From positions 1 to 62,667 of the IMG/VR virus record IMGVR_UViG_3300045110_000374: a stretch of 62,667 nt of DNA. One strand, written 5' to 3'. Shown in pieces: positions 12,630 to 59,203 of this stretch. The position numbers and the translations under genes were made by a program. Under the pieces are notes generated by a model. That model worked only from the letters and a program-made list of their open reading frames with translations, did no database searches and had not been told where the DNA came from. Position 1 is the stretch's first letter; each line of letters starts with the position of its first letter. Source of the DNA: a virus. Lineage: Duplodnaviria; Caudoviricetes.

Positions 12630-12846
12630 CGCCGAAGAAATTTGTGTGCGTCCGATCCCCAACGAAATGTCTACGCCGCCCTATGGCGCAACCTTCACGA
12701 TGCACGAAGACCACGGCACGGTCGAGCTTCCCTATTGGCCCGAGGTCATCACTGTGCTTCCAGGCGAATGTGTGAGGATCGCGATTGCCGATCGTGACGG
12801 CCAACTCAAACTTTTGGTAACACGTGAGAGAGGCGAAATTAAATGA
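12622..12846 (+). CDS. Hypothetical protein
   Basis: GAGG RBS, coupled ORF. Confidence 0.55.
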   Translation: MSDAEEICVRPIPNEMSTPPYGATFTMHEDHGTVELPYWPEVITVLPGECVRIAIADRDGQLKLLVTRERGEIK

Positions 12847-13244
12847 GTGCAGTAAGTTGGAGCAAAGAGCGGCTTGAACAGCTCCAGGCTTTGCGCAACG
12901 AGGGTTACAGCTATTCCAGAATCGGGCGAATGCTCGGCTGTAGCCGCAATGCCGCGATCGGTGCCGGCAAGCGTTGGGGTGTGGTTGGCAACGTTGTGAG
13001 GGTCCCGCGTGTGCGTTCGGATGACGAGCCCTTACCTGAGCGCGAGCTTCCGTCGCTGCCAGAACCCGAGCCCGTGTACGAAGGCGCCAAGCACACGCAC
13101 ATGAAAAATTTGGGGTCGAACCAGTGCCGCTATCCCTTATGGGGCACTGAGGGTGGCGCGCCGAATTTCGAGTGCTGTGGCAGGAAGGGATTTCCCTGGT
13201 GCGATCATCACCGCGCCATCATCAAGGGGAAGCGCGTAGCATGA
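12843..13244 (+). CDS. gcrA: GcrA-family cell-cycle regulator homolog
   Basis: N-terminal W..ER...L..L..EG.S.S.I...LG.SRNA.IG and C-terminal L....CRYP.W...F.CCG...WC..H. Confidence 0.85.
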   Translation: MSAVSWSKERLEQLQALRNEGYSYSRIGRMLGCSRNAAIGAGKRWGVVGNVVRVPRVRSDDEPLPERELPSLPEPEPVYEGAKHTHMKNLGSNQCRYPLWGTEGGAPNFECCGRKGFPWCDHHRAIIKGKRVA

Positions 13245-13521: not shown

Positions 13522-14001
13522 ATGGGGCGTAGGCCACAAGCTCTGCCATTTTTAAAGCAGGTTATCGCTTCTGAAACTGACGAATGTATCAAGTGGCCCT
13601 TCGCTACCACTGAAGCAGGGCGCGGTCGTTTTGATTTAGGCGGGAGAGCGGGGCGAATGGTTTTTGCACATCGCTTCGTTTGCCAAGAGGTACATGGCGC
13701 TCCACCGTCTGACCGGCACCATGCAGCGCACTCATGCGGGAAGGGTCACGAAGGGTGCATCAACCCAAGGCATCTCCGGTGGGCAACACCTCTGGAAAAC
13801 GCTCATGATGCGATTGTTGCAGGTACTTACCCACATGGCGAAACGGTAGGGACCGCCAAACTGACAGAATGTGACATCCGCAATATCCGTGCGGAGTATG
13901 CAAAGGGAGGGCTTACGCAGACAGCCTTGGCGCGGTTTTACGATGTGTCAGGCGTACAGATTGGGCGCATTATCAACCATGTTGCCTGGGCCCATGTATG
14001 A
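13522..14001 (+). CDS. HNH homing endonuclease
   Basis: CIKWPF..AHRFVC..AAHSCGKGHEGCINPRHLRWAT..EN, C-terminal HTH. Confidence 0.9.
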   Translation: MGRRPQALPFLKQVIASETDECIKWPFATTEAGRGRFDLGGRAGRMVFAHRFVCQEVHGAPPSDRHHAAHSCGKGHEGCINPRHLRWATPLENAHDAIVAGTYPHGETVGTAKLTECDIRNIRAEYAKGGLTQTALARFYDVSGVQIGRIINHVAWAHV

Positions 14002-15686
14002 AGATAGCTATGGTCACCACATGCAAGGGCCGTTTGCATCACCTCAAAAAAACGCTGCCTCGAAACATCAAACACGCTGGTGAAAATGGGGCGGTCTTTG
14101 TTTTGCTCGATTACTTCGACACTGAAGATCTCGGCGACTACATCGCCCGCAACTACCAGAGCGACATCGAAAGCGGCAGGCTTGTCTACTACCGCACGCA
14201 ACACAGTCCGCGCTTTCATATGGCACACGCCAAGAACATGGCGCATCGCTGCGCGCTGTTGGAGCGGTCTGACATACTGGTGACGCTGGACTCCGACAAC
14301 CTCACCAACCCGGGATTTGCCGATTACATCGCAGCCAGATTTGCCGATGATCCCGAGCTGTCACTTCTGTGTCCGGATTTCAAAGCTTTGCCGCCACGGG
14401 GCAAGCGCTATGATGCGGATTGTCCCACCAAGTTGGGGCGCGGCTTCGCTGGGCGTCTCGCCATTCGCGCACAGGACTTTGTAAAAGTTGGCGGCTACAA
14501 CGAGATCTTCGAGACTTGGAGAGGGGAGGATCTTGACCTGCTAGCGCGGTTGAATCGCTTGGGCCTCAAGCGTGGCGCGCTAGACCCGTTTTTCTTGCAC
14601 GCTATCGCGCACGATTCTGAAACCCGCTTCAAGGAATATCCTGAAGCCGAAGCTTACGAAAATGATGACATCTACGGAATCATTGAGCGTGCCCACGACA
14701 CCGTCGTGAACAACGGTGTGATCGGTTGCGGTGTCGTCTATCGCAATTTTAGCGACGAACCGATTACGCTTAAGCCTCTACCCACAAGAGTCTTCGGCAT
14801 CGGTATGCAGCGCACGGGGACGAGCAGCCTGCACGAAGCGTTTCAGCTTTTGGGTTTCGACAGCGGACATTGGAAGTCTGCGGAGTGGGCTGGCGCGATT
14901 TGGCGAGAGATGAACAAGTGGGGCCGCTCGCGCACGTTGGAATTGGACTATGCGCTTTGCGACAACCCCATTCCGTTGCTCTACCGACGGCTGGACGAAG
15001 CCTATCCAGGGTCGAAGTTTATTCTCACCGTGCGCGATGAAGACGTGTGGCTTGAGAGCTGTAGGATGTTTTGGACCTATGACTGGAATCCGCGCCGGTG
15101 GAGTTGGGACATCGACGGCTTCTCTCACAAGATGCACGGCATCACGTACGGGACGATCGACTTTAACGAGGACATATTTCGCGAGCGTTACCGCCGCCAC
15201 AATGCCGAGGTGCTAGAGTACTTCAAGGGCCGCGACGATCTCTTGTGCATTGAGGTGAACGAGAACGCGTCCATGGCGCCTCTGTGTGAATTTTTAGGCG
15301 TGCCGGTTGTGGATGCTCCCTTTCCCCATCAGAACAAGGGCCCGGATATGCCGGTTATGCCCCCAAGCGAAGAGGACGACATGCCCATGGCCTCGAAGAA
15401 CCGCCAGCACCATCACCACCGCCGTTTGCGGGAGGGCAAGGTCGAGCCCGACCCGGTTGTCCCTGAACCCGCGCCCCCCGAACCTGTAAAACATGTGTTG
15501 TTTGCCGACCTCAGCGACACCCAAGTGATCGAGCTTGCCCAGCTTTATGACTGGCAGGTCCCGACCGATACGCGTTGGGGCTACAGCATGGTGACGGATG
15601 CCCGCCACTCTCTCACCACGCGCTTTACCGTGGCCGAGCTTGACGCAATGGCCGAGAAGTTTTTGGGCTGGAAGCCTACCCCGTGA
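13998..15686 (+). CDS. Glycosyltransferase (GT-A, GT2/GT7-like) fused to a P-loop sulfotransferase domain
   Basis: TTCKGR..HL, AHAKN, DSD, GGYNE.F..W.GEDLDL; then VFGIGMQRTGTSSL..A...LG, YPGSKFILTVRD..W..S, PLCEFLG...PFPH.N. Confidence 0.85.
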   Translation: MKIAMVTTCKGRLHHLKKTLPRNIKHAGENGAVFVLLDYFDTEDLGDYIARNYQSDIESGRLVYYRTQHSPRFHMAHAKNMAHRCALLERSDILVTLDSDNLTNPGFADYIAARFADDPELSLLCPDFKALPPRGKRYDADCPTKLGRGFAGRLAIRAQDFVKVGGYNEIFETWRGEDLDLLARLNRLGLKRGALDPFFLHAIAHDSETRFKEYPEAEAYENDDIYGIIERAHDTVVNNGVIGCGVVYRNFSDEPITLKPLPTRVFGIGMQRTGTSSLHEAFQLLGFDSGHWKSAEWAGAIWREMNKWGRSRTLELDYALCDNPIPLLYRRLDEAYPGSKFILTVRDEDVWLESCRMFWTYDWNPRRWSWDIDGFSHKMHGITYGTIDFNEDIFRERYRRHNAEVLEYFKGRDDLLCIEVNENASMAPLCEFLGVPVVDAPFPHQNKGPDMPVMPPSEEDDMPMASKNRQHHHHRRLREGKVEPDPVVPEPAPPEPVKHVLFADLSDTQVIELAQLYDWQVPTDTRWGYSMVTDARHSLTTRFTVAELDAMAEKFLGWKPTP

Positions 15687-20892: not shown

Positions 20893-20938
20893 GTAGCGGC
20901 GCCCGCAAGCCTTGGGTAGCGGCGCCCGCAAGCCTTGG
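20893..20938. repeat. Perfect 23-bp tandem duplication GTAGCGGCGCCCGCAAGCCTTGG x2
   Basis: Read directly from the sequence. Confidence 0.9.
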
Positions 20939-24738: not shown

Positions 24739-24992
24739 CGGACACTCTGTCGACCGACCAAGAGCAAGTCGTCAGGGCGCAGGAGACCATCAAGCGCCTG
24801 ACGACGACAATTCGGGCCGTTCAGGTTGTCATGGAGGCCTTGTACGGGTACGCGGAGAAACTTACAGCGGTAGAAAATGGAGAGTACGAAGTTCACAAGG
24901 CAGAGGCGTATCACAATGCCGCCGAGGCCATCCGTTTCGCGCTCTCAGATGAGGTGGACACAAAAGACCGCAAAGTGCCAAAATACGATTGA
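24735..24992 (+). CDS. Hypothetical protein immediately upstream of terminase
   Basis: ATGA-coupled on both sides. Confidence 0.6.
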   Translation: MTDTLSTDQEQVVRAQETIKRLTTTIRAVQVVMEALYGYAEKLTAVENGEYEVHKAEAYHNAAEAIRFALSDEVDTKDRKVPKYD

Positions 24993-26911
24993 TGCCGCCC
25001 AAAGCCCTTGCCGTTCCGACGTCGCAACGCGCTTGGCGCGACCTGTTCGATGAATTCCTCACCAAGCTCCGCATCGACTCCAAAGAGACGGTGGCCGAAG
25101 ACGAACGCGGCTCCGAACTCGAAATGTGGGGTTCGCAGCGCATGTTCCTGGACAACATCTGTATTGGGCTCGACCAAGGCAAGCGCGAATTTCTATGCTT
25201 GAAAGCGCGTCAGCTTGGGGTCTCCACCATAAGCCTTGCGATCCTTCTGTTCTGGCTCGCAATGCACCCTGGGCTACAAGCTGCCCTCGTCGTGGATACC
25301 GAAGAGAACCGGGAGAAGTTTCGGCTAACGATACATCGGTATATTCAAAGCTTTCCAAAGAAGTTTTTCGGTGATTCCTTCGCCATCAAGAAGGGCAAGG
25401 ACAACCGCGCCTTCACGCATTTCACCAACGGCTCGAACCTGGACTATCTGGTGGCAGGCAAACGCAAAAAGACGCTTGGCGAATCGCGCGCCTATAACTG
25501 CGCGCTGTTGACGGAGTGTGCCAACTACGGTGACCCAGATGGCTTGAACTCGTTCGTCAACACGCTCGCGCAAACCCATCCCGATCGGCTGTACCTGTGG
25601 GAATCGACCGCAAAGGGCTACAATCACTGGCACGACATGTGGCTGGAAGCCGGCCGCGACACCCTCACCAAACATAGATTCTTCATCGGCTGGTGGTCCA
25701 AGGACATCAATGCGTACTCGCCGCGAGGCCCGGCGCCGCAACCGGCACTCTTCAAGCAGTACTCTCAGGAAACGCTTTCGCGAGAAGAAAGCGAGATGAT
25801 CGACGCGGTCAAAAAGCGCTACGGCGTGACCATCACCCAAGGCCAACTCGCTTGGTATCGCCACCAGCAGTCCAACGTCTCGGTGCGCGAAGAGTCCATG
25901 CACCAGAATTTGCCTTGGGTTGAAGAACAGGCCTTCGTTTTGACCGGCTATTCGTTCTTTCAAACGCGCGTCCTGCAAAAGGATATGTCCAGGATTCAGG
26001 GCCTCGAACCGGGCAGCGAGCCGGTCAAGTTCAAAGGCTATCGCTTTTGGATCGGGGAAGATTTCTTTTCCACCAAGATGGAGCAGGTTCGCACAGTAGA
26101 CGAGGTGGAATTACGAATCTGGGAAGAACCCTCCAAGCATGGCGATTACGTCATTGGCTGTGACCCGGCATTCGGACGAAACGACAATAAAGATAGGCAC
26201 TGTTGTGAGGTGTATCGCTGCTACGCGGACAAGCTGGTTCAGGTGGCTGAGTACGCCGTCGACAACGTCGAGACCCGGCAAGCCGCATGGGTGCTGGCGT
26301 ATCTCGCGGGAACGTATCGAAACTGCATCTGCAATCTCGAACTCACCGGTGGCCCTGGCTTGGCGGTGTTGGCCGAATTCAACAATTTGCGCAATCAACT
26401 CAACGCCGAGATGTATTCGCAGCGCGTCAAGGACCTCGACTGGGAAGACTTCTTGAACAACGCGCGTTGGTTTTTGTATCACAAAAGCGATTCGCTTTCA
26501 GGCGCAGGTTATGTCGCGGGCTGGAAGACTTCACGCGATAACAAATTCGAAATCATGAACCAGCTTCGCGACCTGCACGTCACCAACGTGCTTATTTTGC
26601 ACTCGCTTCCGTTGACTGAAGAGATGCTGACGTTCGTTCAGGACGGCGGCGAACTCGGCGCGCTCGGCACCAACAAAGACGATCGCGTGTTTGCAAGCGC
26701 GCTAGCAAGTCGCGCATTTATTGATTGGGTAAGAGGCCGAATGTTGAGTGCAAACATGACTTTTGCGCGCGTGCAATCCGGTGAGGCGGGCGACAATTCC
26801 GACCCCGGCGTCGTCGATAGAATCGTTGCTGATTTTTTCAGAAGAGCCGAAGAACGAGCAAACGAAGGCTCGGAACCGCCGCGGTGGATGAAAGAACGAG
26901 GACTGGCGTAA
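24989..26911 (+). CDS. terL: Terminase large subunit
   Basis: LKARQLGVST Walker A, ESTAKG coupling motif, IGCDPAFG and KDDRVFA nuclease motifs. Confidence 0.93.
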   Translation: MMPPKALAVPTSQRAWRDLFDEFLTKLRIDSKETVAEDERGSELEMWGSQRMFLDNICIGLDQGKREFLCLKARQLGVSTISLAILLFWLAMHPGLQAALVVDTEENREKFRLTIHRYIQSFPKKFFGDSFAIKKGKDNRAFTHFTNGSNLDYLVAGKRKKTLGESRAYNCALLTECANYGDPDGLNSFVNTLAQTHPDRLYLWESTAKGYNHWHDMWLEAGRDTLTKHRFFIGWWSKDINAYSPRGPAPQPALFKQYSQETLSREESEMIDAVKKRYGVTITQGQLAWYRHQQSNVSVREESMHQNLPWVEEQAFVLTGYSFFQTRVLQKDMSRIQGLEPGSEPVKFKGYRFWIGEDFFSTKMEQVRTVDEVELRIWEEPSKHGDYVIGCDPAFGRNDNKDRHCCEVYRCYADKLVQVAEYAVDNVETRQAAWVLAYLAGTYRNCICNLELTGGPGLAVLAEFNNLRNQLNAEMYSQRVKDLDWEDFLNNARWFLYHKSDSLSGAGYVAGWKTSRDNKFEIMNQLRDLHVTNVLILHSLPLTEEMLTFVQDGGELGALGTNKDDRVFASALASRAFIDWVRGRMLSANMTFARVQSGEAGDNSDPGVVDRIVADFFRRAEERANEGSEPPRWMKERGLA

Positions 26912-26942
26912 CCCCACATAAATTGCTGTGTGAGGTTACGCC
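26905..26942. terminator. Long hairpin closing the pentamer array and the convergent terL transcript
   Basis: GGCGTAACCCCACATA-aattgc-TGTGTGAGGTTACGCC inverted repeat. Confidence 0.7.
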
Positions 26943-26950
26943 TCGTCCCT

Positions 26951-27501
26951 GAGCCAAAGCTCGCCAAGTCTTGTCACTCCACGCCCAGCCTTGCCCGGGC
27001 TAACCCTGCCTGCCTTGCCACTCCCCGCCATGGCCCACCAAGCCTAACCGGGTCATATCACGACTAGCCTGTCTTGCCATTTCCCGCCCCATCGTGCCGA
27101 GCCGTAGCCCGCCGCGCCTGCCTTGTCTGTCCTTGCCTTGCCCCAGCACGCCTAGCTCTGCCCAACCATCCTCGCCTGCCTTGCCTCTTCTTCCCTCGCC
27201 AGACCTCGGCCAGTCATTCCTAGTCGCCCTTGCCGAGCCAGCCGGACCTTGCCAACCTCATCGGGGCATATCTGGCCCCGCCTTACTTCACCACGCCTGC
27301 CAGACCATGTCTGACCTGATCCGGCCCCGTCCTCCTCGCCATTGCTTGCCGTGCCGGCCGTGCAGTGCCATGTACCGCCCTAACGGTCCTTGCCTCGCGA
27401 TCCAGGCCTTGCCTGCCTTGTCATGGCTCGCCGTGTCAGGCCCCGGCCAGCCTCGCATGACATGCCACGGCATGACTCACAGCGTCGTGTCGCGCCTCGC
27501 C
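26951..27501 (-). ncRNA. Pentamer-periodic (GGY-NN) guide-like RNA array, ~9 units of 49-63 nt separated by GGCAGGC-type junctions (VIPR-like)
   Basis: Plus-strand junctions gcctgcc/variants at 27008, 27067, 27116, 27174, 27237, 27295, 27353, 27411; between them G-led 5-mers such as GGCTA GTCGT GATAT GACCC GGTTA GGCTT GGTGG GCCAT GGCGG GGAGT GGCAA. Confidence 0.85.
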
Positions 27502-27510
27502 AAAACATCT

Positions 27511-27999
27511 TTAATTTGCACGCACCTCTTGCTCTGGCACAGATTCAGCGCGCAGTCGGATGCCAAAGCCCGTTAGATCGGCGATGCGTTGGTCAATCTC
27601 ACCCTCAAGGCCCAGCGCAATCGCAATATCGCGTGCTCGGCGCAACCGGGAAGCCGCGTGCTCGAATTCGGCAGCAACGGTTTCTCTCGCAAGTTCTTCT
27701 TCCGATTGCAGGCGCCGCACCGAACGATAGCCCTGTTTGTTGCTCGGTTGCTCGACGTCACGCACATAGCCAACAACGCCGACTTGAACGCGGTTGATAA
27801 CGATATGCACCTCGACGCGCCGTATAAGCTCGCGCGCTTGGTTAAGACGGTGCGCTTGAGCGGCCGCGGCATCGTCCCATTCGAACTCCTTATGCAACGG
27901 GCTGTTATGGTCTTGCGCCGCGCGAACGATGTCATCGGGTGTGATTCGTCCGTCTTCGGTTTCCAGTGCCGTGATGGCGTCAATAAGTTCTTTACGCAT
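27511..27999 (-). CDS. Accessory protein of the Cas7-like/pentamer-array locus
   Basis: ITP.DIV.AA...NSPLH.EFEWDD..AA..HRL.QAR.LIR motif; start overlaps the Cas7-like stop; stop lies 10 nt before the array. Confidence 0.8.
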   Translation of the reverse strand: MRKELIDAITALETEDGRITPDDIVRAAQDHNSPLHKEFEWDDAAAAQAHRLNQARELIRRVEVHIVINRVQVGVVGYVRDVEQPSNKQGYRSVRRLQSEEELARETVAAEFEHAASRLRRARDIAIALGLEGEIDQRIADLTGFGIRLRAESVPEQEVRAN

Positions 28000-28822
28000 G
28001 TGCGGCTTCTCCTTCTGAAGTGTCGATTGCCTTGCGCCGCTTTTTGGGCTTGTCCGAATCGGAGCCGCGGCGCTTGCGCTCCTCGTAATACCAGCGGTAC
28101 ATGTCCTCCGTTTCGTCGTCGTAGAAATCAGGATTGGCCAAAGCCTCGTCCTGGATTTCACGGCCTTCGCGCAGAACGGCGAGATATTCTGGGTCATCCT
28201 CAGTCACAATTTCGAATTGGCCAAAGCTGAAGGTGCCTTTCTCTTGTCGGCCGTCGCCTACACCAACGATCATGCCGGCCGCGGCAAGCAGATTGGCGAC
28301 GGATTGAAAGTTCAGTTTTGGACGCATGTATCGCAACGTGATTGTTGTCGCCCACTTCGGCAGAAGTGCGCGAGTTCTAATATCCGGCGTCTTCTGAATT
28401 CCAGCCATGCGGACAACCGCCATGTAAAGCTGCGGGCGTCCGAAGATTTCAACGTCTCCCCATTGCGCTGTTAGCAATCGACCGATTTCAGTCTTGGCAG
28501 CACCGGGGATGTCCAGCGCAGCGGATGCTGCCGCCTTCTTGAGCGCATTCGATGGGAATTTGAGACGCGTCGGGTGATCGTCCGTGCGGTAACGGTAAAC
28601 GCTGTCGCGATACTCTTGTAGTGGGTCATGCTTGATGTTGGACGCCTTCTCCGCTGCGCCCATTCTGCCCGGTCGCGGCAGCAACAACTGCATCCGCGCC
28701 TTCTCGCTCATCCGATTAAAAACGAAAGGTGAGCGCCCTAGGATATGAAATTGCGCTTCGCCGAATTCGAGTTCTGAAATCACCAATTCGGCGCTTGCCG
28801 ACGTCTTACTCTCTCGTGCCAT
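27992..28822 (-). CDS. Stand-alone Cas7/RAMP-like RNA-binding protein (Vipr-like)
   Basis: RAMP-type layout: F.ILG.SPF.F strand, FPSNALKKA (cf. IPGSSLKG), R.R..LP.W strand, terminal Gly-rich loop GVGDGRQEKGTFSFGQFEI; GGAGG RBS. Confidence 0.78.
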   Translation of the reverse strand: MARESKTSASAELVISELEFGEAQFHILGRSPFVFNRMSEKARMQLLLPRPGRMGAAEKASNIKHDPLQEYRDSVYRYRTDDHPTRLKFPSNALKKAAASAALDIPGAAKTEIGRLLTAQWGDVEIFGRPQLYMAVVRMAGIQKTPDIRTRALLPKWATTITLRYMRPKLNFQSVANLLAAAGMIVGVGDGRQEKGTFSFGQFEIVTEDDPEYLAVLREGREIQDEALANPDFYDDETEDMYRWYYEERKRRGSDSDKPKKRRKAIDTSEGEAAHA

Positions 28823-28957
28823 GAACGGCCTCCATTGTCGCGCGGCCAGTCACGCCCGACGCGATGAAGCGGGGGATGCGGTGAGGCATCGCCGTCGACA
28901 ATGGAGGTTCTCTGGATACTGCTCACCGCGTTCGCCTTGTGACTGCAAGGTGTTGTT

Positions 28958-28986
28958 GATTTACGATTGGGGTGGAAATTAAGCAA
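28958..28986 (-). promoter_or_regulatory. Putative sigma70 promoter for the Cas7-like operon
   Basis: TTGCTT-N17-TAAATC on the minus strand. Confidence 0.5.
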
Positions 28987-29099
28987 GAGGGGCGACCATA
29001 AAAATCATTTGGTGCGCCCCTCCTCTTACTTAGCTTGCCTAAGCCTGACGGACCGGGTCTTGCCAAAACTGGCCGAAGCGGGGCATGCCATTCCTTGCC
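28987..29099 (-). ncRNA. Solo pentamer guide-like unit (14 G-led 5-mers) followed by a hairpin
   Basis: GGCAA GGAAT GGCAT GCCCC GCTTC GGCCA GTTTT GGCAA GACCC GGTCC GTCAG GCTTA GGCAA GCTAA, then GAGGGGCG..CGCCCCTC stem. Confidence 0.75.
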
Positions 29100-29162
29100 T
29101 ACTTACAACGCGGTAGAAACTACTGTATTCCCCAAGTAAAGGTTTTTGAAAAGGGGCTTGTA

Positions 29163-29696
29163 GTGATTCCGCGACACTTAAGGCCGGCTGAATACACAAT
29201 CCATTGCGAATGTTTGATCTGCGGCCATGTTTACAGCCGAAAGGTGCGCAGGGTGACTGAACGAAACCCACCCTGCCCCATCAAAGCCTGCCGCGAGGCT
29301 CAGGCCAAGGCCCAAGCCGAACGCATGGCGGCCAATATCGAGAACATTATCGCCGAGCAAAGGCCGCCCGGTGTTGTTGGTTCGAACGTCGCCAAAGCCA
29401 TCGATCACACGAATGAAATCGTCGCGCGGGATTATGGTTTTTCGGATGTTCGTGACGCTAAGCGCGAGGGTGACACATCGGTTCCTCGGCTTCCCACCCA
29501 CCAGCAAGCCCGTGTCGACGGCTTCTGGGGCAACAAACCAAAGCACAACCCCGCCCTTGCGAACCAAATGCACCTGCTAGGGCAGCGCGCCATGGCCGGC
29601 TCGTTTGCACCGCGGGAAAAGACGATTGTCGATCACGCACTTTCGCCCGAGCACGGCCCTGGCTTGAAGCCCAACATCAAAATCATCGCCGGCTAA
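29163..29696 (+). CDS. Zinc-ribbon protein preceding portal
   Basis: C.C..CGH...CP...C; likely GTG start at 29163 after AAGGGG. Confidence 0.7.
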   Translation: MIPRHLRPAEYTIHCECLICGHVYSRKVRRVTERNPPCPIKACREAQAKAQAERMAANIENIIAEQRPPGVVGSNVAKAIDHTNEIVARDYGFSDVRDAKREGDTSVPRLPTHQQARVDGFWGNKPKHNPALANQMHLLGQRAMAGSFAPREKTIVDHALSPEHGPGLKPNIKIIAG

Positions 29697-29702
29697 CACA
29701 AC

Positions 29703-31505
29703 ATGGCGCTCAAGATACCCAAGAAGGGACTTGGCCAATGGGCGCAGGAACTCGTTTCTTTATGCAGCGCATCGCAGAAGGACCGCATCCAGAAAGGCGC
29801 CTTCTACAGAAATCTTTATTTAACCGGGGACAGTGACGGCAACCCCGCGACATACCCCAAGGCTGTGCCGTATCTCGAAAATCTCGCATCGTTTCTGTAC
29901 TCGCCCGTCGAACTGCGCTTTGCCATCGAAGCGTCAGAACAACCCGACGAAACCGCGATGGCGAAGGCCGCACAGCAACGGCTGCACAGCGAGATTCGCG
30001 GCGGAAGCGTCGACCTCGAAGTTGACGAAAGCGTCATCTGGTCTTTGGTGAAGGGCAAAAGCTTTCTGCAATTGCTGTGGGCCGGCGGTGGCTTCGAAGC
30101 CAACATGATGCAGCCCGAGCTGTTTGGGGTGATGCGCGAAGACCTAAGCTCACTCGACGCGCAAGAGTGCTTCTTTCATTCGGTGTATCTCACCAAGGGG
30201 CAATTCGCGTCCATGGTGCAGGGCCACCCGGACGCGGAAAGCATGATCCGCAAAGCCAAGTCGTACTTGGACCCTGAGAAGGTCAAGCAACCGGGCGATC
30301 AGTCGGACCTCTTGAAGACGGTGATTCTTGGAGGGCTCAACCCCTATCAAAAAGCCGGCTCCCCGCAGCCGAGAACCCAAGGCGTGACCGATTGGCTTTC
30401 GGGCCCGCGGCCAACGTTCGATCCAAAGGTTTTGGCCGAACTCATACGCTTAGACGAACTCTGGGTTCGAGACGCCGCTCGCGGCGAGGACTGGACCACG
30501 CTGCAAGTCGTGGGCACCGATTGTATCGTCGAAGGCAAATACGTGCACCGCAACCTGTTCGCAGACCCGGTTGGCGTGACCGATCGCGAACTTCTTGAGC
30601 AATCCAGAAAGGCCAACCCGCTTACCGGCCATCACCCCTTCATCGAGTTTTGTGCGAACCCCTTGAAGGGCTATTTCTGGGGAAAGTCTGAAATCAACAA
30701 CATCGCCCTTTTGCAGATCGCCTTGAACGCCCGCATGGCCGGTATCCAAAGCTTGCTGCGCCGCCAAGAAAACCCGCCAAGGTATTTCACGGGTACGTCG
30801 ACGATTAACCAGAACGCCTACGCCAAGTTGAACAAGCCGGGCGGTTTCTTGGCCGATGGTGCGCCCAACGCGAAGATGGAAACGCTTGCCCCTGACTTGC
30901 CCGATGACCTCTGGATGGACTTGCGCGAGATCGAGCAAATGTTCGACGACATGGGCGGGTTCTCGGCCGTCATGCGGGGAAAAGGGGAATCTGGTGTGCG
31001 CGCCCAAGGCCATGCCGAGACACTCGTTCGAACCGCCTCGCCCCGCTTCAAAACGCGCGCCCTTCGCATAGAGCGCTCTGTGGAAGCGGTCGGGGGCCTT
31101 GCGCTGGATATTCTTCGCGCCAAGCTTTCCGACAAACTCGCCGGTTGGGCAAAGCCGGGCCCGCCGCTTCCCAACGAAGCGCCTGCCGCATGGTGGAGCC
31201 GCTTCTTCACCGCACCCGCGCCGGGCATGAAGCGCATCGAGTTCATGATGTACGACCTCCCCGCAGGCTGCAAAGTCACCGTGGACAGCCACTCCTCCTC
31301 GCCCGCCTTCAGCCATGAGTCCAAAGAACTGGCCTTCGAACTCAACAAGGTCGGCGCCATTAGCCCAACCGATCTTCTTGCCCTCGCCCATCCCCCGCAC
31401 GAAGAAAGCTTGATCTTGGAAGCCGAGCGGCGTGAGATCGAGCACGCCAAATTCATGGCGGAGCACCCGGAGCTGGCGGCCAAAGAAGGCAAGAAGAAAA
31501 AATAG
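29703..31505 (+). CDS. Portal protein
   Basis: 600 aa downstream of terL; HPFIEFC.NP..GYFWG.S, GVRA.GHA..L segments typical of podovirus-type portals. Confidence 0.8.
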   Translation: MALKIPKKGLGQWAQELVSLCSASQKDRIQKGAFYRNLYLTGDSDGNPATYPKAVPYLENLASFLYSPVELRFAIEASEQPDETAMAKAAQQRLHSEIRGGSVDLEVDESVIWSLVKGKSFLQLLWAGGGFEANMMQPELFGVMREDLSSLDAQECFFHSVYLTKGQFASMVQGHPDAESMIRKAKSYLDPEKVKQPGDQSDLLKTVILGGLNPYQKAGSPQPRTQGVTDWLSGPRPTFDPKVLAELIRLDELWVRDAARGEDWTTLQVVGTDCIVEGKYVHRNLFADPVGVTDRELLEQSRKANPLTGHHPFIEFCANPLKGYFWGKSEINNIALLQIALNARMAGIQSLLRRQENPPRYFTGTSTINQNAYAKLNKPGGFLADGAPNAKMETLAPDLPDDLWMDLREIEQMFDDMGGFSAVMRGKGESGVRAQGHAETLVRTASPRFKTRALRIERSVEAVGGLALDILRAKLSDKLAGWAKPGPPLPNEAPAAWWSRFFTAPAPGMKRIEFMMYDLPAGCKVTVDSHSSSPAFSHESKELAFELNKVGAISPTDLLALAHPPHEESLILEAERREIEHAKFMAEHPELAAKEGKKKK

Positions 31506-31510
31506 ACCGC

Positions 31511-33355
31511 TTAACGTACCATCACGGTTGGATAAGAGTTCGCAATCGCGCTCAAATAATACTCGTCTGGGGACTGACCTTGGCCGCCATGTGCCTTGTT
31601 TATCAAGGTTTGCACGACAATCTGGTTCACGCCTGAGTAGGTGATCCGAGTTTTGTCCAAAAATAGGATTTGAAGGTACGACCGGGCCGGGTCGTAGCCA
31701 ACCCAATCCATCAGTCGAGATGTATTTCGAAAGTAGAACCAAAACCCTTCGCCAAGCCCCCCCATACTGCTGGTGGTGCCGCCTCCCGTCGGAGCGACCG
31801 CCGTGCCAACCCCGGTGGCTGATCCAACCGCGGCGGCGGTTGCGGCGCTAACCCCAAGCGCTGTGCCGGTACCGGTGGCTGAGCCTCTTTTGCCGGTCGT
31901 GTCGCCGACGGCAAGCGCTGTGCCAATACCAGCGGCTGTGCCCCGGCTTCCTGTGGTCGCGCCGACGGCTGCGGCCGAGCCAACGCCCGCGGCCGAGCCG
32001 ATGCTGGCTGTAGCGCCGACGGCAGCAGCGGTGCCGACGCCGGCTGCCGAACCGCTGCTGGTGCCTATCGATGCGCCGGCAGCAGCGGCAGCGCCCGTAC
32101 CAGTAGCCGCACCAACGCCCAATCCGGTGCTTGTCGATGTGCCGACACCAGCGGCGCCACCAACGCCAGCAGCCGAGCCAGCGCTTGCTGTTGCGCTAAG
32201 CGCAGACGCTGTGCCGATACCGGACGCTGCGCCGACGCTGCCCGTCACGGCACCGACACCAAGCGCTGTGCCGACACCGGACGCCGAACCGATGCTGCCA
32301 AGTACTGCACCGACGCCATTGGCTGCACCAACGCCAGCAGCAGCGCCGGTTGCAGAAACTATGCTGCCGTTCGAGGTTTCGCTTCCGAGCGTGTAGAACG
32401 TTGCAGGAGCGTTCTGATTGCGATACGAGGCCGTGAGCCAATCAGCCGACCGGACCGTATTGGAAATCCTCAATTCGTCGAGGATTCCGTTCCATTCGCG
32501 AGATGACGTCGCTGAGTCATGTCCCGCATAGCTCGTGACGGCCGATGTATCGAGGACAAAGCCGCCGCCGGCTGTGCCGGCAGAAGCGTTATTGACATAC
32601 GAGGCAAGCCCGGTCCCCGTGCTGTAGGTCCAATCCACCTTATAAAAAGTGCTGGTTGAGAGCGTGATGGACCCGGGATCGAGCTGAGTTGCGCCGACGT
32701 TCTGGAGATAGGCTGCGGTCTTGCCTGCACTAGTGATGAAGAATTGCGAATAGACCGTTACGCTGCCGTTAATGCGCGACCAGACCGTGTTGTAGCCGTG
32801 CGGAAACGATGTGGCGTTAACCCAACATTCGACCGTGATGGCCGCAGGGTTGATCGCGTTACTTGTCGACGCGTACTGGGTGCTGACGGAAGCAAGCGCC
32901 ATTCCCCCGTCGACCTTGCCGGCGCCTGCGATGGGGCTGTTCGTGGGTGCGCCGTTATTGCCGTTCGACGTGCTGTCGGCAAGACTGAGTGTCGTCCCGT
33001 CCCTATAGTGATAGACGCCAAGATAGGCGCTGTTCCACACCGAACTCGCCACCGACTGGAACGTCGAGACCGTGTTGTCGCCGTAGAAGCAGGCAAATGT
33101 ATCGGCGACCGCGTGAAGCGTCGTGGCCTTGAAGTGCGCCACCACGTCGCCGGTGGCGGAATTGTAGCGCTCCATTTCCCAGAAGAACGGGGACGATCCG
33201 TCGCCGTTCGGCCCAAAGCCTATGTCATTGCCGTTCGCGTCCGTGACGTGCGTGCGATCGATCTGCGAGGCGAACAGGACTGGGAAATCCGTCAGGTTGC
33301 CCGACGGCGGCTGGGCGATGGTGAACGGAACGTAGTAGGCCGGCGTAATCGCCAT
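31511..33355 (-). CDS. Virion-associated DUF2341/LamG (ConA-like) protein with Gly/Ala repeats and C-terminal KTSC-like domain
   Basis: LTDFPVL..D.NG.DI.F, GVYH, WNGILDELRISNTVRSADW; GSA.GVG.A repeats; VGYDP....L.I.F....Y.GV. Confidence 0.7.
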   Translation of the reverse strand: MAITPAYYVPFTIAQPPSGNLTDFPVLFASQIDRTHVTDANGNDIGFGPNGDGSSPFFWEMERYNSATGDVVAHFKATTLHAVADTFACFYGDNTVSTFQSVASSVWNSAYLGVYHYRDGTTLSLADSTSNGNNGAPTNSPIAGAGKVDGGMALASVSTQYASTSNAINPAAITVECWVNATSFPHGYNTVWSRINGSVTVYSQFFITSAGKTAAYLQNVGATQLDPGSITLSTSTFYKVDWTYSTGTGLASYVNNASAGTAGGGFVLDTSAVTSYAGHDSATSSREWNGILDELRISNTVRSADWLTASYRNQNAPATFYTLGSETSNGSIVSATGAAAGVGAANGVGAVLGSIGSASGVGTALGVGAVTGSVGAASGIGTASALSATASAGSAAGVGGAAGVGTSTSTGLGVGAATGTGAAAAAGASIGTSSGSAAGVGTAAAVGATASIGSAAGVGSAAAVGATTGSRGTAAGIGTALAVGDTTGKRGSATGTGTALGVSAATAAAVGSATGVGTAVAPTGGGTTSSMGGLGEGFWFYFRNTSRLMDWVGYDPARSYLQILFLDKTRITYSGVNQIVVQTLINKAHGGQGQSPDEYYLSAIANSYPTVMVR

Positions 33356-34233: not shown

Positions 34234-35037
34234 TCAGTGCCCATCCTTGATTGGAGCGCCGCCAATGTTGTGAGACCCGCAATCGAGGCAGACGAAAACG
34301 CTATGCTTGCCGTGCTTGCCTTGCCGAAGTTGTAAATTGTCCGGGTGGTTATTGCCGGGATCACCGTCGATGTGATGCACCGTTTCGGTTTTGAGCAACG
34401 GTCGACCAAGTTTCCGAGCCATCACCAATCGATGCTCAAGAACATGACTGTCATTCATAGCCATACAGTACAGTGGATCATCAACAGCAACCCAAACCCG
34501 AACATACCCATTTGAATCAAGCATCCGTCCACCCTTCCACATGGAATGAGCAGCCCCCGCTTCTCTCTTGGGTGAGATACCGTGACGGCGCATAGCGCGA
34601 CTAATAAAAGACTGCGAACGACCAAGCTCTAGCGAAATCTTCACCTGCCCCATACCTGCCGCCTTCAGCTTTCTGATGCGATCAAGTTCACCGGGCTTCA
34701 GAGGCTGTGCTTCGCTCTCACGAAGAACGGCACCAGCTCGCCGAAGCGCATACTTGAAGGCATACCCGGACGCTTTGCCAAAATGCTCATTTAGTCGACT
34801 TACAGGAACGCCCGATTCGTAGACCTTGCGTATCTCTTGTTCTCGTCCGACAAACATTGTCGCGTTCTTTCGCCACTCGGTCAGACCTACCTTGGGGATG
34901 TCATACTTCGTTAAGACACGATGGACGGTCGTGTCCCCGATCCCAAGCGCCGTAGCTGTTTTGTAAACAGAGTGGCTGTGCCGATAATGATCGATAATTT
35001 GATCATCAGTGACAGGATTAGCGCGTTGTTTCCCCAT
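34234..35037 (-). CDS. HNH homing endonuclease
   Basis: WKGGR..D..GYV..VLEHRLVMA..LGRPL...ETVHHIDGD..NN.PDNL. Confidence 0.9.
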   Translation of the reverse strand: MGKQRANPVTDDQIIDHYRHSHSVYKTATALGIGDTTVHRVLTKYDIPKVGLTEWRKNATMFVGREQEIRKVYESGVPVSRLNEHFGKASGYAFKYALRRAGAVLRESEAQPLKPGELDRIRKLKAAGMGQVKISLELGRSQSFISRAMRRHGISPKREAGAAHSMWKGGRMLDSNGYVRVWVAVDDPLYCMAMNDSHVLEHRLVMARKLGRPLLKTETVHHIDGDPGNNHPDNLQLRQGKHGKHSVFVCLDCGSHNIGGAPIKDGH

Positions 35038-58378: not shown

Positions 58379-58743
58379 CGTCGTTGCTGCCTCCATGTTG
58401 AGGTTTTTTTCTTCTTACGCTCTGACGGCGTTCGTCTTGGCTTGCGCTTCACGGTGAGCTTGCCCGCGCGCAAGCGTTTGTCCTTGGCGATCTTATGCTT
58501 GGAGCTGCCGAGAGTCGTAGCCTTCGTGCCGTTGGTGATCTTCGCGTGTTCGTGCTTGAAGCTGTAACGGCAATTGCGAGGCTCGTCTGGACCATCAAGC
58601 GCCAATTCCGCGAGGTGTTCCCGCTCAACGAGGTTCACGGTGTCTACCGTGATCGGGATGTTGCTTCTGAAGCAGCGGATTTCGACGCCTTGGTGCAGGA
58701 GCGTTGCGAGGACTTCGCGCTCGGAAAAACGCCTACGCGCCAT
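58375..58743 (-). CDS. HNH-like nuclease
   Basis: EREH...LAL.G.D...N......H..IT, KHKIAK.KR. Confidence 0.65.
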
Positions 58744-59203
58744 CTTGCACCCTCTTGGCGGTGTATTGGTTGGCCGACCGCCCCTTCCTGGCCATATCCT
58801 GACTGTTGTCTAAATGTGTCCCCACGAAGAAGTGTTTTGGGTTGCAGCAAATTCGATTGTCACAGGTGTGGCAGACCAGAAGTTCATCCGGGATGGGACC
58901 AACGACCGCGGTGTACGCGAAACGATGGGCGAGCACGTTCGTCTGCCCAGTCTTGGTGGTGAGTGTGAAATTGCCGTAACCGTGAGCGGTCGCGCCGACC
59001 CACGGCCAGCATTCATCAGGCTCACGGCAGTCGACGTGACCCCAAAACCGTGCCATCGCCCCAGCTATGGCACGGAGGCGCCACATCTTCGTCTTGCATG
59101 TCGGAGAGCAGTATTGGGGCTTAGCAGCACGGTTCGCGTTGATCGCATACCCTCGATCGAAGGCGTCTCCGCATTGGGCGCAGGTTACGTGGCGCGAAGT
59201 CAT
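58733..59203 (-). CDS. HNH homing endonuclease
   Basis: CW.W.G...GYG..LAHR.AY...[15 protein letters not shown]. Confidence 0.9.

Follow-up and report, generated by a model that had tools for sequence, protein, structure and literature searches.

VIPR systems and a candidate locus in a soil phage

VIPR (Viral Interference Programmable Repeat) is a newly described mode of RNA-guided DNA recognition with a gapped code, thought to predate CRISPR, and is described in three 2026 preprints (10.64898/2026.04.26.720920, 10.64898/2026.04.26.720927 and 10.64898/2026.10.15.759431). As defined there, a VIPR system has a minimal RAMP called Vipr, in most cases a single accessory gene (one of vap1-6), and vrRNAs made of 9-16 repeats of YNNGG. 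The protein grips the GGY of each repeat, and NN base-pairs with DNA, with a skip of one target base in every three (10.64898/2026.04.26.720920). The authors of this preprint describe the systems as mostly viral and of seven types, recognize a candidate vrRNA by at least four tandem YNNGG units adjoining vipr, report frequent internal degeneracy within vrRNAs and, in the legend of fig. S18, describe staggered arrays whose vrRNAs overlap by 1 nucleotide (nt) (10.64898/2026.04.26.720920). For the Vipr of Escherichia phage SUSP1, whose type II VIPR is characterised experimentally in the three preprints, the second of them reports a cryo-electron microscopy structure in which R138 of the thumb and D177, W178 and R179 of the G-loop hold the constant GGY, with Trp178 stacking on the second G (10.64898/2026.04.26.720927). 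Here we analysed the 62,667-nt sequence of a Caudoviricetes phage (IMG/VR record IMGVR_UViG_3300045110_000374, positions 1 to 62,667; hereafter the window) and put at roughly 0.88 the probability that its minus strand carries the VIPR locus of a complete soil phage, comprising vipr, a vap-type gene, a solo guide and a staggered array. The kind of system, its code and the staggered layout are already in print, and the locus adds another example.

A predicted minimal RAMP and its accessory protein

The cassette lies on the minus strand, between terL and a plus-strand operon beginning at 29085, and is ordered in its own reading direction as a solo pentamer tract, a hairpin, an open reading frame (ORF) of 276 amino acids (aa), a 162-aa ORF, a pentamer array and a terminal hairpin. 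The original prediction, made from the sequence alone, had laid out these tracts, hairpins, genes and an array of about 550 nt (552 nt as parsed here) in the same way. The 276-aa gene, assigned as vipr from its predicted fold and homology (27992..28822, minus strand), has a GGAGG ribosome-binding site six bases ahead of its ATG and overlaps the 162-aa ORF by 8 nt, with both frames intact. Its product had no match in Pfam, NCBIfam or PADLOC, a best PDB sequence match at E 0.14 and, in PHROGs, membership of the unannotated family phrog_4652 only. Homologues numbered 823 among 2,209 candidates (E <= 1e-3), none of them named, and tblastn against named phages recovered only four records of three Gordonia phages (30-33% identity), annotated as 'hypothetical protein'.

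An alignment and profile of 53 homologues (A1), with the window's protein as row 1, was the basis of an AlphaFold2 model (pLDDT 85.2, pTM 0.79). The model comprises an RRM core, a beta-hairpin at residues 131-154 that is a candidate thumb, and the G-loop GVGDGRQEKG (residues 187-196), which links a helix to the final strand of the core; beyond the core, about 70 mostly helical residues end in a basic disordered tail. The best structural matches were Cas7-family subunits of type III effectors (Csm3, Cmr4; e.g. 6ifn, 9g9a, 6s6b), and the model and these matches bear out the RAMP/Cas7 fold originally proposed: as modelled, the 276-aa product is a minimal RAMP of the Cas7 type. All residues invariant in the family (23/23) are present in the window's protein, and none of the 53 homologues departs from R151 or R192, D190 being almost as constant.

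The connection to published VIPR systems was made through SUSP1, whose record (KT454805.2) holds a 195-aa and a 146-aa ORF, both on the minus strand and flanked by GGY tracts. From these tracts and from residue numbering we infer that the 195-aa ORF is Vipr; its numbering matches the preprint at 5/6 residues, residue 175 being V in the record and T in the text. The A1 profile aligned to this ORF with an hhalign probability of 93.3% (E 2.8e-7) over 51 columns spanning residues 149-199, the G-loop region. SUSP1 R138, D177 and R179 align to R151, D190 and R192, so three of the four mappable GGY-holding residues are kept; the contact residues H17, E71, M72, C173 and T175 lie outside the mapping. 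Taken with the GGY/NN guides and skipped third base of the published code (10.64898/2026.04.26.720920), this G-loop alignment supports the attribution to VIPR offered in the original prediction.

The 162-aa gene (27511..27999, minus strand) is a vap-like accessory gene, matching phrog_15946 (E 4.4e-19) and having tblastn homologues beside relatives of vipr. Its AlphaFold2 model (pLDDT 90.4) matched nothing in the PDB at E <= 1e-3; over the first ~95 residues it gave weak forkhead, MarR and RepA winged-helix matches (E about 1), and the C-terminal part is modelled as a helical hairpin. Several published vap families are predicted DNA binders, some of them winged-helix-like (10.64898/2026.04.26.720920), and the weak winged-helix resemblance seen in the model is compatible with these families.

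Two pentamer tracts on the strand of vipr

Guanine on the minus strand was strongly periodic, with autocorrelations of +0.35, +0.28, +0.21 and +0.19 at lags 5, 10, 15 and 20, the peak at lag 5 being the one anticipated in the original prediction. In 100-nt windows along the whole minus strand, period-5 G power had a median of 0.14, a 99th percentile of 1.07 and a maximum of 3.38, and all 25 windows with power >1.5 (25/25) fell inside two tracts. A hidden-Markov model with six states, used to call GGYNN tracts on each strand along the full 62.7-kb window, returned exactly these two tracts and nothing else in the genome. The putative solo vrRNA guide region (29034..29099, minus strand), upstream of vipr, holds 13 GGYNN pentamers in one register and gave the highest period-5 G power in the window (3.38). 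It is followed at once by a stable hairpin (about 28981..29027, minus strand; RNA fold -30.8 kcal/mol, z -4.31, 0/200 shuffles equally stable), which is a candidate 3' tail and/or terminator. The second tract, a putative staggered vrRNA array (26953..27504, minus strand), begins 7 nt past the stop of the 162-aa gene and spans 552 nt, with 98 complete pentamers in 15 register runs; it is closed by a terminal hairpin (about 26899..26949, minus strand; RNA fold -37.4 kcal/mol, z -5.85) that overlaps the 3' end of the convergent terL. With 13 units upstream and 98 downstream on the strand of vipr, both tracts hold many more than the published minimum of four tandem YNNGG/GGYNN units adjoining the gene.

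Triplets among the 111 complete pentamers included 48 GGC, 10 GGT, 13 GAC, 8 GCC and 7 GGA. The first constant base was G in nearly all units and the second was G in 66/111, giving a constant triplet looser than GGY, namely G-G/A/C-Y. We rejected a coding reading of the array, since a period of 5 nt broken by -1 slips is incompatible with codons; a 160-aa ORF on the plus strand (27094..27576) is a low-complexity by-product of the repeat.

The register of the array slips 14 times between its 15 runs, every slip being -1 (a 4-nt unit), and short runs of 1-4 pentamers occur. Junctions of the form GGCN^G (^ marking the slip; one reads GACA) stand at 27452, 27417, 27359, 27301, 27243, 27180, 27122, 27073 and 27014, at spacings of 35, 58, 58, 58, 63, 58, 49 and 59 nt. 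The modal spacing of 58 nt equals the unit length of about 58 nt given in the original prediction, and by this count the array would consist of about ten guides, the solo guide being additional. The guide-sized units measure 35-63 nt, and five of them have a length of 58 nt. Each 58-nt unit also holds one further, non-canonical -1 slip at a variable position, which may reflect degeneracy.

The same grammar was found across 80 viral loci encoding relatives of Vipr, in which slips of -1 far outnumbered those of +1 (793 vs 50). Slip-to-slip distances in these loci peaked at 44 (50 cases), 49 (101), 54 (73), 59 (76), 64 (46) and 69 nt (29), which is 5k-1. The 4-nt slip unit was GGCA in 400/793 cases and GGCN in 632/793, and the next base was G in 99%. 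At the level of sequence, the GGCA^G slip pattern is what would be expected of two perfect pentamer runs with one G in common, and the slip grammar fits the published staggered layout with its 1-nt vrRNA overlap. The array of one relative (L039:4399-6726) is at least 2.3 kb long, reaching the end of the fetched locus, and contains 41 slips of -1, or more than 40 guides.

Conservation and variation of the module among relatives

A relative of Vipr was encoded by 531/598 candidate viral stretches, of which the best 80 loci were kept for counts, and 45/65 bacterial and archaeal stretches were confirmed, yielding 43 loci from very diverse phyla. A GGYNN array of at least 100 nt on the strand of the gene was present in 78/80 viral and 37/43 genome loci, in agreement with the original prediction that homologues elsewhere would have adjacent pentamer arrays. 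Of the two viral exceptions, L017 ends 360 nt past the gene and L053 has a period-5 signal without the GGYNN motif. When the reverse strands of these 80 were parsed as a control, tracts appeared in 15 loci and amounted to 3,929/484,493 bases. Homologues of the accessory gene were detected on the strand of vipr in 75/80 viral loci (tblastn) and in 15/43 genome loci. In seven of the 80 viral loci (L004, L011, L013, L018, L033, L053 and L065) the accessory gene is separated from vipr by the array or, in L053, by the period-5 signal, and some of these loci carry arrays on both sides.

Related phages were 88-96% identical in the flanks of the module; alignment broke at the start of the array, with patches reappearing, often displaced. 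Across 43 locus pairs, which are not independent, and within the BLAST-alignable array stretches, mismatch rates were 4.7, 7.8 and 7.3% for G, G and Y, and 16.3 and 14.7% for the two N positions, vs 13.2% in the flanks. Judged from these alignments, the constant triplet is conserved and the two other bases are variable between relatives. The original prediction of a constant G(G)Y with variable NN held for the contrast in conservation; in the window the triplet is looser, 58/111 pentamers being GGY.

At the G-loop position of SUSP1 Trp178, 61 relatives have W, F or Y and eight have G. The second constant base was G at a mean frequency of 0.79 beside an aromatic residue (n = 61) vs 0.69 beside Gly (n = 8; Mann-Whitney p = 0.035, kinship not corrected for), and a link between G-loop residue and second constant base is too weak to claim from these counts. 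A broader version of the idea would make this very large clade a VIPR variant in which changes in the protein are matched by changes in how the constant triplet is read, the Gly G-loop relaxing the second base to G/A/C, whilst a vap family unrelated to vap1 and 4-nt units within guides might alter target spacing. We consider this unlikely; were it to hold, the constant bases of the code would be open to tuning and could be predicted from a single residue.

Proposed mechanism and target searches

By extension from the SUSP1 work, the pentamer tracts would be transcribed from the minus strand, and one Vipr protomer would bind each pentamer, the protomers building a filament. The thumb and G-loop would grip the constant G-G-Y and leave the two variable bases of each unit displayed; these dinucleotides would pair with double-stranded DNA, skipping every third target base, and DNA binding would silence transcription. 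The accessory gene may be translationally coupled to vipr. Likely targets would be rival phages, prophages or satellites that share the host.

Target searches followed the published 1-nt-skip rule. Within the phage's own genome, the best 1-nt-skip matches comprised 11-16 bases; most guides did no better than the mean of their shuffles, and a fraction of 0.27-1.00 of the shuffles scored at least as high as the guide itself. Exact matches to cores of 9-10 units numbered 3, 1, 0, 2 and 1 in five viral-contig scans and 1 in one metagenome scan, as many as were estimated to arise by chance; extension to the full guide gave 23/26, 18/26, 19/26, 20/22 and 22/26, on contigs of 27-46% GC vs 57% for the phage. 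Two hits of the same sequence (L129 and L130) matched one 9-unit guide at 18/18 bases; they fall in coding sequence, where the wobble position coincides with the skipped base; this match was not counted because it represents one independent event and the chance estimate is about 1-2 per scan. The 13-unit solo guide, allowing <=3 mismatches, matched 0/3 and 0/401 genomes.

Alternative explanations

Several observations weigh against the assignment of the locus to VIPR. Canonical GGY is present in only 58/111 pentamers, and -1 slips in the array occur once per about 37 nt, which is denser than in most relatives; some units may therefore be decayed. The position of SUSP1 Trp178 is Gly191 in the window's protein, and the 162-aa protein has neither a confident fold match nor detectable similarity to SUSP1 vap1 (hhalign 0.09%). 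Sigma-70-like sites numbered 0 in 26700..29400, and the promoter placed in the original layout was not recovered. The phage sequence was contained in two sequencing runs, both of DNA and none recorded as RNA, and no target above estimated chance was found in the phage, viral contigs, metagenome contigs or 404 genomes.

Some of these points would fit a decaying or inactive VIPR remnant, in which the array has degenerated and working guides are no longer produced: the low share of GGC or GGT (58/111), the short register runs of 1-4 pentamers, the replacement of the G-loop aromatic residue by Gly, and target searches that returned nothing above chance. Against such decay stand two intact ORFs overlapping by 8 nt, the presence of 23/23 invariant family residues, a first constant base that is G in nearly all units and a genome rated complete. 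Relatives are likewise degenerate (mean G at position 2 of 0.69-0.80), and comparable degeneracy is described for published vrRNAs (10.64898/2026.04.26.720920). We regard a remnant as very unlikely. That guides match the phage's own genome no better than shuffled guides speaks against another explanation, in which the cassette regulates the phage's own genes as a temporal switch instead of attacking other elements; for the published systems, too, the preprint reports no self-targets at >=80% NN match (10.64898/2026.04.26.720920). Self-regulation would suit a locus that lies in the packaging/structural region and adjoins terL, as well as the failure to find an external target, and appears less probable again than decay.

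The tract might instead act as DNA, for example as a protein-binding repeat for packaging, with the RAMP-like protein binding some other RNA. In favour of this, the tract abuts the 3' end of terL; against it, among relatives the tract follows vipr and not terL, in 78/80 viral and 37/43 bacterial loci of unrelated context. The signal is also strand-specific, as the reverse-strand control shows (3,929/484,493 bases), and relatives alter the variable bases and swap whole units, which is unexpected for a fixed binding site; we give this explanation hardly any credence. A VIPR locus remains by far the best explanation of the cassette, in support of the original reading, and gives an example that is complete and clearly bounded, from a soil phage that has not been cultured. 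Its clade is common in metagenomes and lacks any annotation in Pfam, NCBIfam and PADLOC, and its quantified staggered grammar (-1 slips at GGCA^G, units of 5k-1 nt) is usable for automatic array annotation.

Genome setting

The phage record is a 62,667-bp sequence with direct terminal repeats, rated 100% complete, obtained from soil metagenomes and with a GC content of 57%. As originally predicted, the gene adjoining the array is terL (24989..26911, plus strand; phrog_2, E 5e-15); the label of portal given at the same time to the 600-aa ORF at 29703..31505 (plus strand) found no support, this ORF being without a PHROG or Pfam match. The original statement that cas genes and repeat-spacer CRISPR are lacking was upheld: none of the 71 other phage ORFs of at least 90 aa belonged to a Cas family (Pfam, E <= 1e-5), and no CRISPR repeat-spacer array was found in the complete phage genome. 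Membership of class 1 CRISPR-Cas was rejected on these two grounds. An Rfam scan of 26700..29300 (E <= 1) detected no ribozymes, hammerhead included, its only match being a chance one of a miRNA model to the terminal hairpin.

Elsewhere in the genome, Pfam detects the domain of the cell-cycle regulator GcrA in an ORF at 12843-13241 (plus strand; E 1.1e-12). Such genes typically occur in Alphaproteobacteria and in phages of that class, which hints at an alphaproteobacterial host. A 614-aa ORF at 31511-33355 (minus strand) combines a Laminin_G_3 (concanavalin-like) domain with a Gly/Ala-rich region whose coding sequence consists of tandem repeats of 18 and 57 nt (31800-32355); its product resembles a fibre or receptor-binding protein. 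HNH_3 endonucleases are encoded at three dispersed sites on the minus strand (1897-2418, 34237-35037 and 58736-59203), and a 562-aa ORF at 13998-15683 (plus strand) joins a galactosyltransferase-like N-terminal domain to a sulfotransferase domain, which is unusual phage cargo. A 23-nt unit is perfectly duplicated in tandem at 20893-20938 (plus strand).

Comparison with known systems

The RAMP/Cas7 relationship extends to type III CRISPR effectors, with which the 276-aa protein shares the predicted RRM/RAMP fold, G-rich loop and candidate thumb hairpin of Csm3 and Cmr4, and presumably the binding of one subunit per fixed number of guide nucleotides. Identity to the type III subunits is only 9-15%, however, and Cas10, Cas5, Cas6, Csm2/4/5 and a repeat-spacer array are all missing here. 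The guides also differ, having a 5-nt period of constant/variable pentamers in place of the 6-nt period and continuous spacer of type III CRISPR. Compared with VIPR arrays that are interspersed with ribozymes, in which hammerhead ribozymes stand between the guides, the window's array has none by the Rfam scan.

SUSP1 type II VIPR shares with the locus the one-strand order of guide, vipr, accessory gene and guide array and the G-loop motif GVGD-x-R, as well as the Arg of the thumb and two G-loop residues, Asp and Arg. Its Vipr is smaller (195 aa vs 276 aa here, where a helical, basic C-terminal extension is predicted), similarity between the two Vipr sequences is limited to about 51 columns and the two accessory proteins show no relationship. 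Each SUSP1 guide is a unit of its own that carries a copy of the repeated leader and ends in a hairpin tail that is conserved; in the window the guides run on without a break and overlap.

Staggered-array VIPR is also among the closest known systems. Like it, the phage has a lone minimal RAMP gene with one accessory gene, GGY/NN pentamer guides on the strand of the gene, and neither cas genes nor a CRISPR array; in both, guides of 9-14 pentamers overlap by 1 nt, an overlap that appears here as the -1 slip at GGCA^G. Relative to the published staggered arrays, the locus is set apart by its looser triplet, by the additional -1 slips within 58-nt units and by a separate upstream solo guide with its hairpin.

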